Part shown: positions 2,111-6,540 of the stretch, piece by piece | How positions within the stretch are numbered: the first letter of the stretch is position 1 | Layout of the letters: each line of letters begins with the position of its first letter | DNA from: Shigella phage SHFML-26 | Reading direction: 5' to 3' (one strand) | Length of the DNA: 64,000 nt | Sequence record: KX130862 | Made by a program: the position numbers and the translations under genes | The notes under the pieces: generated by a model | The model's input: the letters and a program-made list of their open reading frames with translations, nothing else | Told to the model about the DNA's origin: nothing | The model's database searches: none

Positions 2111-2965
2111 TCACAATGAAGAAAATTCTTTAACTAAAGCCTGTAATGAAGCCTCTATTGGATATCCATTCTTAACTAACATTTTCCTAAACATCACATG
2201 TTTAGGACGATTATATGATATCCACAATTCATACAATTTATCTTTATTATCCCAATGATAGCCTTTTCGTCGAGATGCTATATGAGCTTTTCTAATCTCC
2301 GGATTTTTCCAACTAGCAGCTACTGAATTTGATATAGCTATTTTATATTCAGGTTTTGATAAAGCAGCACGAACAGCCTTTTGGTGTTTAATTTTATTTT
2401 CTTCGTTATTAAACCATTCCCTTGAAGCCATTGAAATTTTTTGTTTTGTTTTAAAATTATTTAATCTTTCTTTGTTATCTTTCCTATTTTTTGCTACTGA
2501 AAAATATTTTAATGCCCTTTCTCTAGCAGCATTTCTATTTTGCGGATTTGAATAATATTGTTGAAGCCTTTTTGATATTGTGTCACTTACATCTTGTTTT
2601 ATAAAACTATATTCAGCAGCTATTAAATCAACTTCGGCTAAAGATAAATTTTTATATGTTTTTCCTGACATCATTCTATTTAAAGCATTTAGCATTTTTC
2701 CATTTTTACCTTTTGCTAATAAGAAATGTGCTTTAAAATGATTAAAATGACTTAAATTAACTAAATTCCATGTAGATTTTAAATATTCAGGAAATATTGA
2801 TTTAGGAAGCACGTGATGTGCTTCCGTTTTACCTGGAGTTTTAACAGTTGAATTCATAGAAATAAAATTAATGTAAGACTTGGCGTCTTCTTCACTCAAC
2901 GCTAATTTTTCAACTAATTCCTTTATTAAAAATTCATCATTAATGTCAAGTTTAAAATTCTTCAC
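2111..2965 (-). CDS. HNH-family homing endonuclease (free-standing)
   Basis: 284 aa; HNH motif (EAHHVLPKS...NLVNLSHFNHFKAH); basic C-terminal region; apparent GTG start overlapping the upstream stop (GTGA). Confidence 0.75.
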   Translation of the reverse strand: MKNFKLDINDEFLIKELVEKLALSEEDAKSYINFISMNSTVKTPGKTEAHHVLPKSIFPEYLKSTWNLVNLSHFNHFKAHFLLAKGKNGKMLNALNRMMSGKTYKNLSLAEVDLIAAEYSFIKQDVSDTISKRLQQYYSNPQNRNAARERALKYFSVAKNRKDNKERLNNFKTKQKISMASREWFNNEENKIKHQKAVRAALSKPEYKIAISNSVAASWKNPEIRKAHIASRRKGYHWDNKDKLYELWISYNRPKHVMFRKMLVKNGYPIEASLQALVKEFSSL

Positions 2966-2967
2966 AA
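2931..2967 (-). repeat. direct repeat copy 1 (about 37 bp, roughly 85 percent identical to 3134-3170)
   Basis: aattcatcattaatgtcaagtttaaaattcttcacaa versus aattcatcattaatgtcaaatgtcgaaaacttcacaa; encodes the N-terminus of the HNH gene. Confidence 0.6.
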
Positions 2968-3177
2968 AAGATTCCTTTTAATGTATCTTTTAGACCATTC
3001 TATCATATCATCATAATCTAAAAAGTATTCATCAAATTCAGCCATGCAAACAACGCCTTGTGCTGTTTTTGATGTAATATAAATTATTCCAACATATCTA
3101 GAATCTTCTTCGGTATAATCAATATTTGCTATGAATTCATCATTAATGTCAAATGTCGAAAACTTCACAATACGCAT
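2962..3177 (-). CDS. small hypothetical protein (gene 46.1 position)
   Basis: Track ORF 2962..3225; internal ATG (MRIVKFSTFDINDEF...) is the more likely start; lies between genes 47 and 46. Confidence 0.45.
   Translation of the reverse strand: MRIVKFSTFDINDEFIANIDYTEEDSRYVGIIYITSKTAQGVVCMAEFDEYFLDYDDMIEWSKRYIKRNLL
3134..3170 (-). repeat. direct repeat copy 2 (encodes the N-terminus of the 46.1-position gene)
   Basis: See copy 1; gives the two adjacent genes similar N-termini (..KFSTFDINDEF versus ..KNFKLDINDEF). Confidence 0.6.
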
Positions 3178-3412
3178 CCTTAATACAAGATACAGCCATA
3201 TCTCGTAATGATTTAAGTGTGTCATTATCTAAAATGTTGAAGTTAAAAGATACAGCCCAATCTGTACAGACCGTAACCTTTTTAATACAATTATCTTCAA
3301 CCTCTAACGGTTCAAACCAATATTCAATAATTTCTTTATGACCAATATCATCTTTTACTTCGCATTCAAAATGCTGACTCATCATAACATTTTTAAATTC
3401 ATCAAAAGTCAT
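3149..3412 (-). CDS. small hypothetical protein (gene 46.2 position)
   Basis: 87-aa ORF; ATG start overlaps the gp47 stop (ATGA). Confidence 0.5.
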   Translation of the reverse strand: MTFDEFKNVMMSQHFECEVKDDIGHKEIIEYWFEPLEVEDNCIKKVTVCTDWAVSFNFNILDNDTLKSLRDMAVSCIKDAYCEVFDI

Positions 3413-4428
3413 TGTGTTGCCTCTACATATAGCTGATTTGCATATTGAATAAGTGCTTCACGGTCAGAATCAGTGATGTCTGGAATTGCATTAATGTATT
3501 CTTCCATCAATGTCTGAAGCGATTGAACTTCAACTTCTTCACTGTCATCTGACTCGACAGAGTTATCAATCTTTGACACAACTCGTAATGAATGCACAAC
3601 TTTTTCTAGTTCAGATTCGAACTTCGTTAGATTTTTGTCTACTTCAGTTACTATAACACGTACTGATAGATTTGTAAAATCTTTATAGTCAATTTTTCCT
3701 TTAAATGGATAATGAATTCTACGATGCCAGGTAGTATTGTTTGGAATAAATTCCATTCGTTCTGTTTCTGTATCAAACATCCAGAACCCACGAGGGTCAT
3801 TCTCGTCACCTGCAGTTAGTGTCCATGGTGTCCCAATATATCTAACGTTAGCAGCCTCAGAGATAGTATGGAAGTGACCAGACCACACTTCTTTATAAGT
3901 CTTAAGGAAATCAGGTTCAAGACCGTGAGATTTCATTCCTTTATAAAAATAAAATCCATTCAGTTCCCAGTGACCAACACAAAAAGAAGCAGATGAAGTT
4001 TTGATGTGCTCAAGAATTTCACCAGTATTTTCTTCGCACATCCAAGGAATTAAATCAATTAAACATCCGTCAAAATCTACTGTAGTAGGCTTATCATATA
4101 CTTTAACATTAGGATATTTAGCCAAAAGCTCAGTAGAAGCATTTGGATGCATTACATTTTTGTAGTGGAGATCGTGATTTCCTACAATAGTATGTAATGT
4201 GATTCCAGCACCATCAAGCATTTGAACTATTTCACGGGCAAACTCCATAGTTTTATGCGTGATCGCTTTTCGTACATCAAAAATATCACCGTATTGAATC
4301 CATACCGTAATTCCATTTTTCTTAGAATATTCTATCGCTTGCTTAATTCCATCAATTTGAATACCGCGAATCCACTCATCATCAGCTTTAACGCCTAAAT
4401 GCCAATCACCCAAGTTTAGTATTTTCAT
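3409..4428 (-). CDS. 47: recombination endonuclease subunit gp47 (SbcD/Mre11-like phosphoesterase)
   Basis: 339 aa; calcineurin-like phosphoesterase motifs (GDWHLG, GDIFD, GNHD); size equals T4 gp47. Confidence 0.95.
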   Translation of the reverse strand: MKILNLGDWHLGVKADDEWIRGIQIDGIKQAIEYSKKNGITVWIQYGDIFDVRKAITHKTMEFAREIVQMLDGAGITLHTIVGNHDLHYKNVMHPNASTELLAKYPNVKVYDKPTTVDFDGCLIDLIPWMCEENTGEILEHIKTSSASFCVGHWELNGFYFYKGMKSHGLEPDFLKTYKEVWSGHFHTISEAANVRYIGTPWTLTAGDENDPRGFWMFDTETERMEFIPNNTTWHRRIHYPFKGKIDYKDFTNLSVRVIVTEVDKNLTKFESELEKVVHSLRVVSKIDNSVESDDSEEVEVQSLQTLMEEYINAIPDITDSDREALIQYANQLYVEATQ

Positions 4429-4604: not shown

Positions 4605-5807
4605 TTATTTTGTAATAATGTCAAACTGTTCTTTAAAGCAGAAGCTTGAATCTTGATGCTGATACAAAAATTCATAAGCTTTTTCTCGCTCACGGTCATA
4701 AAGAGCTCGGTCAGATGACAGTTCTTTAATACGTTCAAATGTTGATTCCATGTCATTTTCATCAAACCAAATGATACCGCTATCATGCGAGGTCAAAGGA
4801 GTATTATCAACACGGAATTTTAAATTTTCGCCAGTAGATTTCCAAAATACCGGAATTGTTCCACATGCACCAAGCTCGAGATGAGTATATTCTAAAGAAC
4901 GTTGTAGATATTTTTTGTCCAACTTACTCAACTGATAACCAAATCCGGATTTACTCATGCGTTCAAGCATTTCGCTATTTACATAACGGTCAAGAATTTG
5001 CGTTGGCAAATTAGGAGCAATTTTAATTTGGTCTACTTGATGAAGACGATAATACTCATATGGAATTCCTTTTTCTTTAATAGGAATGAACGCTGGAGAA
5101 CGTTCCAGACCTTCCATAATAGTACTTAGCCCAGCAGGTTTAAGATGTTTTTCGTGAAAATCAAACATCTGATAAAAACCTTTCCATGTAGTCGTACGAC
5201 CAATCCAGCGGTTGACATTCATGTTAATTTCAGAAACATCTTTCCAGTAGGTTGATCGAACCTTCGCAATATCCATAGGAGGCTGAAAGTTGTATACAGT
5301 CGGTGCTTCTTCAATATCATCAAACAAAGAAACAGTTTCTGGATACCATTCTTTCATCAGAACTTTATTAAAATCACCATTATCAGAATGACTAAAAATA
5401 ACATCAGCTCGACGAACAGTTTCTTCTAATCCCAAATTTCGGCGCAAAGAAAGAGAAGAATGGTCATGTTGATAAACTACAACACGAACTGAAGGTTTAA
5501 TGTTATCAATAATTTTTTTATAGTTATTAATAGTGTCTTCTTCGACTGAAGTAGCAGGAACTGAATTGATAATTAGAATATCACAATCATTTACCAGCTT
5601 AAGTGTTTTATCGTATTCTTTTGCCAATAAAACCGGAATTGAAAATGATTTATAATCATGTGCACAGTTACGAGTAAATGATTTATCTTTAGCATAAACC
5701 AAAGTTACTTCATGACCATTTTTAATAAACCAATCACGTTGCTCAAGAGAAAATTTAGTTACACCGCAACCTTCAAGACCTCGAGCCATAAAAATACATA
5801 CTTTCAT
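4605..5807 (-). CDS. a-gt: DNA alpha-glucosyltransferase
   Basis: 400 aa, same length as T4 alpha-gt; N-terminus MKVCIFMARGLEGCGVTKF; sits between gene 47 and gene 55 as in T4. Confidence 0.9.
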   Translation of the reverse strand: MKVCIFMARGLEGCGVTKFSLEQRDWFIKNGHEVTLVYAKDKSFTRNCAHDYKSFSIPVLLAKEYDKTLKLVNDCDILIINSVPATSVEEDTINNYKKIIDNIKPSVRVVVYQHDHSSLSLRRNLGLEETVRRADVIFSHSDNGDFNKVLMKEWYPETVSLFDDIEEAPTVYNFQPPMDIAKVRSTYWKDVSEINMNVNRWIGRTTTWKGFYQMFDFHEKHLKPAGLSTIMEGLERSPAFIPIKEKGIPYEYYRLHQVDQIKIAPNLPTQILDRYVNSEMLERMSKSGFGYQLSKLDKKYLQRSLEYTHLELGACGTIPVFWKSTGENLKFRVDNTPLTSHDSGIIWFDENDMESTFERIKELSSDRALYDREREKAYEFLYQHQDSSFCFKEQFDIITK

Positions 5808-6050
5808 TTAATATCCTCTTTGTTTTGGTTTATTTTACCAAAAATTTATAAAGCAATATAGGAGCCGAAGCTCCTATCCACATAATACGCCATACAGAGG
5901 CTCGTTAGAACTTTTAAATTTTATGCGCTTATATTTTATAGTTCCTTCTGCTTTAGCTTTATCATGAGACTCTTTAAAGCGTCTCATCATTTCCTCTTTA
6001 GAGAAACGAATTTTATTATAATCTATTTCAGAAGTCTGGGTGTTCATCTT

Positions 6051-6257
6051 TCATAACTGCCACCATTTTTTGACTTGATAAGAATCAACCCACACTTTCA
6101 TATTAGGGTCTGCTCTTACAATAGGAGGATTAACTTCTTTAATTGAACTATCATGGTATTCTTTTTCAGAAATTTTCACACAAAGATGACCATTCAAAGA
6201 TTCAGTAAATCCTGCATTAATTTTAAGACGCTTGAATTTTACGTGTGTAAGCATCAA
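6051..6257 (-). CDS. hypothetical protein
   Basis: 68-aa ORF co-oriented with neighbours; start uncertain. Confidence 0.4.
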   Translation of the reverse strand: MMLTHVKFKRLKINAGFTESLNGHLCVKISEKEYHDSSIKEVNPPIVRADPNMKVWVDSYQVKKWWQL

Positions 6258-6540
6258 TCATATCCTCAATTTGCGATCTAGTAGTCTTCCAAAGAATACT
6301 GATGAGTTCATCGTTATATGGCTGTTTTAGAATATCCCGACTTTTCTTGATAGCATATTCGTATTGAGCAAAATTATTATTTTCAGCTGCAATCTGAGCG
6401 TGCTTATAAAGACGATTCAGTTCGCGTTTGTTTTTAGACAATAACTTATTTGCTTTTCTTTCTGCTTCAAGACGGTTCTTTTCTTCAATAGAAGAAATAA
6501 GCTTTTCCACTTCATTATTAATTTCGGGTTTATCAGTCAT
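6223..6540 (-). CDS. hypothetical coiled-coil protein
   Basis: 105-aa ORF, charged and helical. Confidence 0.5.
   Translation of the reverse strand: MTDKPEINNEVEKLISSIEEKNRLEAERKANKLLSKNKRELNRLYKHAQIAAENNNFAQYEYAIKKSRDILKQPYNDELISILWKTTRSQIEDMIDAYTRKIQAS

Follow-up and report, generated by a model that had tools for sequence, protein, structure and literature searches.

The gene 46 region of Shigella phage SHFML-26 (sequence record KX130862), studied here in a stretch of 64,000 nucleotides (nt) referred to below as the window, encodes a protein of 284 amino acids (aa) that has no counterpart at the same position in phage T4. The open reading frame (ORF; 2111–2965) lies between genes 46.1 and 46, and its GTG start codon (2963–2965) overlaps the TGA stop codon of 46.1 (2962–2964) as GTGA. 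A first-pass annotation made from the sequence had reported this placement, this overlapping start and the absence of the gene from T4, and all three hold. We consider it probable that the ORF belongs to the free-standing homing endonuclease genes of the T-even phages, is MobD-like (HNH-type) and has lodged in gene 46, 18 nt from its start, with the parts of this interpretation that concern target, immunity and sequence relics being inferred.

All features described here are on the minus strand, and the gene order is a-gt (4605–5807), 47.1, 47 (3409–4428), 46.2, 46.1, the 284-aa ORF and gene 46. Gene 46 (413–2095, 560 aa), assigned from the ORF list and the T4 annotation, encodes an SbcC/Rad50-like recombination nuclease subunit and begins in the window with an ATG. 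Gene 46.1 (2962–3168, 68 aa) starts at a GTG at 3166–3168, matches the Pfam family DUF5487 (E=4.4e-49), and is intact and near-invariant in the 11 phages compared, whether the insert is present or not. Gene 46.2 (3149–3412, 87 aa), recognized by Pfam T4_Y03C (E=2.6e-41) and by the T4 annotation, has a stop codon that overlaps the first codons of 46.1.

The 284-aa protein and its distribution

The protein matches PHROG 655, annotated as 'homing endonuclease', over residues 1–282 (E=7.8e-45), and has 30% identity to T4 MobD over aa 47–281 (tblastn against phage genomes; BLASTP E=2e-18). The first-pass label 'HNH endonuclease' is thus upheld as far as a homing endonuclease is concerned, but the HNH part of it went undetected in family and structure databases. 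No HNH family was found at E<=1 in Pfam or NCBIfam, so that the proposed check against Pfam HNH profiles gave no match, and profile and single-sequence searches of the PDB were also negative for this protein. A word-indexed protein search returned only seven matches. T4 MobD itself has a sub-threshold match to PF01844 (E=0.0029, 18.1 bits versus a cut-off of 21.4), which falls on the residues that align with 47–69 of the 284-aa protein.

Five residues (H50, H51, N67, H76 and H80) are invariant among the relatives and form an HH..N..H..H pattern. An AlphaFold model of residues 1–110 (pLDDT 84) has strands at 48–51 and 68–71 and a helix at 73–83, these elements at pLDDT ~84–90; the conserved residues fall on these modelled strands and helix, and residues 1–10 are unstructured. 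More distant relatives bear I-HmuI NUMOD-like, NUMOD1 and NUMOD3 modules. Homology allows us to call the protein MobD-like with confidence. Its assignment to the HNH class is tentative and draws on transitive and pattern evidence, namely the homology to MobD, PHROG 655 and the HH..N..H..H pattern. The gene has a GC content of 28.2%, compared with 34.7% for the whole window. It also contains a perfect palindrome with a 9-bp stem (2805–2825, GGAAGCAC-GTG/ATG-GTGCTTCC), which exactly covers the codons of the conserved nuclease motif TEAHHVLP, scored as terminator-like on the non-coding strand and has one substitution in T6.

The gene is polymorphic in Tequatrovirus. It is carried by 70 of ~517 records with a match to the locus, including those of T6, T2, RB51, RB68 and PP01, and 446 records have an uninterrupted T4-type junction, a polymorphism that bears out the earlier suggestion of an insertion. 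The 70 copies are at least 97.9% identical at the amino acid level, and the roughly 56 that are uninterrupted are at least 98.9% identical. Frameshifted or truncated copies occur in T2 and SV76, RB68, MLP2 and G2133, and probably also in RB51, judging from a 1-nt length difference. In T2 (1501–2353 of the T2 sequence examined) a frameshift splits the copy into two ORFs, and the RB68 copy, with which RB51 shares its 1-nt length difference, is shortened to 208 aa. The copies in T2, RB68 and RB51 appear to be decaying, and the overall distribution is that of a homing endonuclease gene whose spread is recent and which has begun to decay in certain lineages.

RefSeq labels the gene 'homing endonuclease'. 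Petrov et al. 2010 (PMC2993671, Table 5) list one 'other HNH' gene each in T2, T6 and RB51/RB70, which is most likely the gene studied here; the putative homing endonuclease gene counted for T2 in that census is its only one. A literature search returned only census tables and reviews, with no description of the gene 46 insertion site. The gene is an uncharacterized representative of a familiar type of mobile element, and earlier counts include it as a putative endonuclease gene in T2, T6 and RB51.

Three further observations concern endonuclease genes or gene 46 in this region. Beyond a-gt, window positions 5808–6540 contain only small ORFs (57, 68 and 105 aa) where T4 has the HNH gene mobB; mobB appears to be absent from SHFML-26, which would make it a second endonuclease-gene polymorphism within the same 6 kb. 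In Enterobacteria phage Ac3 (OK040907.1, 2706–5222), nearly every synonymous site is GC-rich and E. coli-like from the start of the endonuclease gene through at least 1.6 kb of gene 46. GC there rises from ~30–35% to ~47%, the proteins are still ~96–100% identical to those of the window, and the endonuclease ORF starts with GTT and contains a frameshift. The pattern suggests synthetic recoding or an assembly that is chimeric or contaminated, and does not resemble natural divergence. Escherichia phage BYEP02 (OR757454.1, ~2830–2920) has a tandem duplication of ~80 nt in the 5′ region of gene 46 (..ATTGACATTCAA..CTACTATG repeated) that breaks the reading frame and is possibly an assembly artefact.

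Insertion boundaries and exchanged translation starts

Alignment of the window with T4 and T6, the comparison by which the boundaries were to be set, defines an insertion of 870 base pairs (bp) relative to T4 at 2078–2947 (equivalently 2096–2965, owing to a terminal repeat), located after codon 6 of gene 46. In T4, the stop codon of 46.1 overlaps the GTG of gene 46 directly, without an insert. With a slash marking the junctions, T4 reads ..CTTTTGTGAAGAATTTTAAACTT/AATAGAG and the window ..CTTTTGTGAAGAATTTTAAACTT/GACATT..(insert)..ATGAAATCATTTAAACTT/AATAGAG. Over a longer span, the T4 sequence is ..AGGAATCTTTTGTGAAGAATTTTAAACTT/AATAGAGTAAAATAT.. and that of the window is ..AGGAATCTTTTGTGAAGAATTTTAAACTT/GACATTAATGATGAA..(endonuclease)..TGAACAATTGGATACAAAATGAAATCATTTAAACTT/AATAGAGTAAAATAT...

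The first six codons of the endonuclease gene, GTGAAGAATTTTAAACTT (2948–2965, encoding MKNFKL), are the first 18 nt of T4 gene 46 and match the other insert-free phages examined at 17–18 of 18 positions. They are the captured native start of gene 46. The AAGGA Shine-Dalgarno sequence 7 nt 5′ of this GTG (2973–2977, read directly from the sequence) serves gene 46 in T4 and the endonuclease gene in the window. The 3′ end of the cassette equips gene 46 with another spacer and with an ATG plus six codons (ATGAAATCATTTAAACTT, 2078–2095), so that MKSFKL replaces MKNFKL. The spacer between the end of the endonuclease gene and this ATG, ACAATTGGATACAAA (15 nt, 2096–2110), is cassette-borne, identical in T6, and holds a weak GGA Shine-Dalgarno sequence for gene 46. 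The endonuclease gene and gene 46 have swapped translation starts. The first-pass annotation had recognized that a translation-initiation region was captured, and it was right in this, but the source is the downstream gene 46 and not 46.1.

The true flanking repeat of the insert is this 18-nt gene 46 start, whose copies at 2948–2965 and 2078–2095 are identical at 13 of 18 positions, with an exact part of 9 nt (TTTAAACTT). The right-hand copy corresponds over its first 15 nt (ATGAAATCATTTAAA) to the gene 46 start found in RB69, which indicates that it came with the donor and does not represent a target-site duplication. We also considered a transposon-type insertion with target-site duplication and rejected it, since the two flanking copies differ at five positions.

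Translation of the endonuclease probably occurs at a low level from the GTG by coupling to 46.1, by analogy with what has been argued for other mob and seg genes (PMC2988022). A scan for sigma-70 promoters found no enrichment (16 sites versus 14.3 expected), and a MotA-box-like motif at 2690 was dismissed because it has no correctly spaced −10 element. Even in T4, 46.1 and gene 46 have similar initiation regions, each with AAGGA, 7–8 nt and GTGAAG (window 2962–2977 and 3166–3180) and each overlapping the stop or the end of the gene before it. The similarity points either to an older duplication or to a constraint that coupled GTG starts have in common.

Substitutions in gene 46 linked to the endonuclease gene

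Gene 46 has a cluster of substitutions in nt 18–66 (codons 6–22; 2030–2078) that is linked to the presence of the endonuclease gene and tells more about the locus than any other feature; the first-pass annotation had not noted it. We compared the first 240–606 nt of gene 46 in 17 phages. Tequatrovirus carriers differ from Sf22, which has the unsubstituted (naive) allele common among non-carriers, at 14 positions in nt 10–66 and at seven positions in nt 67–606 (Fisher p=7.5e-11). Three of the four naive Tequatrovirus phages compared show 5–7 differences in nt 67–606, and the fourth, YwIITB1, has 32 downstream. No such cluster occurs in 46.1, on the other side of the insert.

In BLAST tallies, the naive allele is present in 360 records and the substituted allele in 143. 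All 69 records that span the junction between the endonuclease gene and gene 46 carry the substituted allele (at least 99% identity), so that no carrier with a naive allele was seen among them. By subtraction (143 minus 69), about 74 records have the substituted allele without the endonuclease gene, an arrangement confirmed by direct reading in T4, PD112 and PYPS2T.

The closest non-identical relatives of the endonuclease occur directly upstream of gene 46 in two other genera, at ~42–43% aa identity by alignment. In Salmonella phage Melville (Gelderlandvirus) the relative lies between genes 47 and 46 and is present in 5 of 16 genus records, and in Escherichia phage phiEC1 (Mosigvirus) it lies between 46.2 and 46 (10 of 162 genus records). 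Both resemble the gene in the window in their full-length homology, their position directly 5′ of gene 46 and their polymorphism within the genus, and both are linked to a substitution cluster in gene 46 nt 9–66 with the same changes at Q12 and G19Q. Relative to RB69, phiEC1 has 12 differences in nt 34–66 and eight in the next 634 nt; its gene 46 nt 8–33, between the endonuclease gene and the cluster, are native Mosigvirus sequence. Melville and STML-198 differ at 22 positions in nt 9–63 and at a single one from there to nt 400. In all three genera the cluster ends at nt 63–66. Naive alleles of the three genera encode YQNIMSVGG(N/S)PID and carrier alleles encode Y(K/S)NIMSVGQ.., with Q12 and G19 (G19 to Q) changed in all three carrier lineages. 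From these allele comparisons, we infer that the cluster is the immune form of the cleavage site.

The relatives differ from the gene in the window in how they are fitted into the locus. In Melville and phiEC1 the endonuclease gene stands in place of 46.1, a gene found in S16 and RB69, whereas in the window it sits behind 46.1. The 3′ ends of both relatives overlap the gene 46 start by 14 nt, whereas the window has the 15-nt spacer. The Melville gene starts at an ATG that overlaps the gene 47 stop, and the phiEC1 gene uses the start codons of 46.1, in contrast to the gene 46 GTG used in the window. The first 22 nt of the phiEC1 gene (ATGACGAAGACTGATTATGAAA) are those of the RB69 46.1 start, comprising its first seven codons, and the rest of 46.1 is gone. 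Fusion to a resident upstream start codon is therefore a recurrent event in this endonuclease lineage.

Proposed homing at gene 46 and its alternatives

The first-pass annotation had also pointed to a repeat of roughly 37 bp, about 85% identical, shared by the starts of the endonuclease gene and 46.1. The repeat exists: 2931–2967 and 3134–3170 are identical at 31 of 37 positions (84%), with an exact core of 19 nt (TTGACATTAATGATGAATT). The source copy of the core (3134–3152) comprises codons 6–12 of 46.1 (..F DINDEF), and the other copy (2931–2949) places DINDEF at residues 7–12 of the endonuclease, so that the tract is in equal register in both genes, six codons after the GTG. A chance origin of the core was rejected, because exact repeats in 300 Markov-1 simulations of this 1.6-kb stretch were never longer than 17 nt (mean of the longest, 11.5). 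Only this core is specific to the insert arrangement. Eight of the 37 positions (TTGTGAAG) reflect a likeness common to the 46.1 and gene 46 starts, which match in register at 14 of 20 positions (hand count).

It had been proposed on the strength of this repeat that the cassette duplicated or captured the initiation region of 46.1, and that the repeat is the insertion boundary and can mediate excision. The similarity with its exact core is real, and the related phiEC1 endonuclease does begin with 46.1 start codons. We nevertheless regard this explanation as quite unlikely, because the Shine-Dalgarno sequence, the GTG and codons 1–6 in the window are those of gene 46, and because the TTGTGAAG part of the repeat is found at both gene starts in insert-free T4. 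The T4 alignment contradicts the explanation: it sets the insert boundaries at 2947 and 2078, and what flanks them is the 18-nt repeat of the gene 46 start. The 46.1-like portion of the endonuclease (codons 6–12) is within the insert and off its edge. If the 37-nt copies recombined, the body of 46.1 would be lost and its start joined to the endonuclease gene, which would itself be spared; no such product was found in 503 matching records.

DINDEF is identical across all Tequatrovirus 46.1 genes examined, and the 46.1 homologues of RB69 and S16 have (D/H)EF close to their N-termini (by eye from translations), so the tract looks native to 46.1. Residues 1–12 are not shared by the closest relatives of the endonuclease, and tblastn homology begins at around residue 16–24. 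These comparisons suggest that the DINDEF tract in the endonuclease is probably a leftover of an earlier fusion to the 46.1 start. At that stage, the cassette would have been fused to codons 1–12 of 46.1, with the rest of 46.1 replaced, as in the relative in phiEC1, and the 46.1 start would have run into the endonuclease as ACATTTGACATTAATGATGAATTTTTAAT. Later, a genome in which 46.1 was still present would have undergone repair of a break at gene 46. Its broken end ..GTGAAGAATTTTAAACTT could then have paired in register, through microhomology, with the 46.1-derived start and been extended, which would have produced the mosaic leader.

We hypothesize that the gene in the window spreads by homing, in a manner modelled on the workings of free-standing endonuclease genes in T-even phages (PMC2988022). 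Two features of such genes are found at the locus, a presence/absence polymorphism at a fixed site and a linked change in the flanking target gene. The enzyme would nick or cut the naive gene 46 allele around codons 11–22 (TATCAAAAYATHATGTCRGTRGGYGG..) in a co-infecting phage that lacks the gene, and recombination-dependent repair would copy the cassette together with the adjacent substituted allele. The substituted allele (Q12K, G19Q, P21G and others) would make the carrier immune. The ~74 records with the immune allele and without the gene, T4 among them, would be survivors of past homing, either by loss of the cassette or by conversion of the cut site without its gain, through recombination within the 9-nt TTTAAACTT repeat. 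The T4-type allele, with its native GTG, substituted tract and no cassette, is the expected product of recombination in TTTAAACTT, which implies that T4 would be resistant.

Several points weigh against this hypothesis. Cleavage and homing are predictions, the target site is deduced only from substitution patterns, and the cluster could in part be hitch-hiked donor DNA and not an immunity allele under selection. At nt 63–64 the T4-type and carrier alleles differ, so that descent from a carrier is inexact, and the allele counts come from tallies rather than from a per-genome table. The intermediate with 46.1 codons 1–12 fused to the endonuclease and without 46.1 was not found in 503 Tequatrovirus records, where all 69 matches to a chimeric query were two pieces 203 nt apart. 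It was also not found in IMG/VR or metagenome scans; searches of IMG/VR, by the protein and by a profile of three members, returned no relatives, and the metagenome scan returned only 17 distant relatives, mainly nuclease-domain matches, none of them informative on the locus.

The gene could instead be a passenger or an inactive relic, with the gene 46 cluster representing foreign flanking DNA that has no role as target or in immunity. The case for target and immunity does come from sequence comparison, ~14 of the 70 copies are frameshifted or truncated, and the window and Melville share 24 exact nt (TTTAAACTTAATAGAGTAAAATAT) despite ~43% endonuclease identity, which looks like transferred DNA. 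We consider this alternative unlikely in view of the ~56 intact, nearly identical copies spread across many phage isolates. The cluster of phiEC1 (nt 34–66) is separated from the endonuclease gene by native nt 8–33, a separation that the import of a single contiguous block would hardly explain, and the common end of the cluster in three genera also argues against such an origin. That ~74 records keep the cluster without the endonuclease gene is as expected of a resistance allele. A reversal of the direction of change, in which Tequatrovirus phages ancestrally carried the cassette and lost it repeatedly by precise deletion between the TTTAAACTT repeats, leaving the empty junctions, seems highly improbable. 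Such a deletion would restore the T4 junction exactly and leave the substituted allele, as in T4, PD112 and PYPS2T, and it may be the source of this T4-type subset. However, 360 records combine an empty junction with a naive allele, which deletion from a carrier cannot yield. The cassette is near-identical across diverse phages and the naive alleles resemble those of other genera, both of which fit a recent gain.

The homing hypothesis places the gene among known T-even systems. T4 MobD is a sequence homologue with the same N-terminal HH..N..H core and helical C-terminal half, and the gene resembles mob and seg genes in being free-standing, without its own promoter and overlapping the upstream ORF (PMC2988022). 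mobD is located between nrdC.11 and mobD.1, with no known target (PMC2988022), whereas the gene in the window is inside the coding start of an essential gene, not in an intergenic gap, and borrows a start and six codons. T4 MobE, encoded between nrdA and nrdB, is also specified by a free-standing HNH gene whose start overlaps the upstream stop, suggesting translational coupling, and it targets an adjacent conserved gene (PMC2988022, PMC2790892). MobE differs in being experimentally active and in having an AUG that overlaps the nrdA stop, whereas the gene in the window is known by comparison, took its GTG from the target gene and has a cassette that rebuilds the downstream start. The proposed system also shares a neighbouring essential gene as target, co-conversion and variant targets in carriers with SegG and SegF. 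SegG (gene 32) and SegF (gene 56), both linked to marker exclusion, cleave in the neighbouring essential gene with co-conversion of flanking sequence, and their carriers have variant targets that are not cut. These are GIY-YIG enzymes with mapped cleavage sites, in contrast to the HNH-type enzyme considered here, for which a site 0–48 bp away from the point of insertion is predicted. The partial exclusion of T2 by T4 rests on at least three endonuclease genes (PMC2993671).

A broader scenario is conceivable, although we advance it only tentatively. A single MobD-like lineage may have specialized on the first 22 codons of the Rad50-like gene 46 in at least three genera of T4-type phages, repeatedly forcing the Q12K/S and G19Q changes, with T4 bearing an immune 'scar' without the gene. 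The cassette would move between neighbouring positions by in-register, microhomology-guided capture of an upstream start codon, leaving DINDEF as a fossil of the ORF that hosted it before.

The gene adds an uncharacterized and apparently active homing endonuclease to the T-even phages, the system in which homing was worked out. Conceptually it falls within known homing-endonuclease biology, and its predicted target is sharply testable. The product of the target gene is a subunit of the very nuclease to which break processing in homing is attributed (PMC2988022). The locus indicates that a selfish gene can sit harmlessly inside the start of an essential gene by swapping translation starts, and some of the N-terminal residues of T4 gp46 may owe their identity to past homing events and not to selection for what gp46 does.

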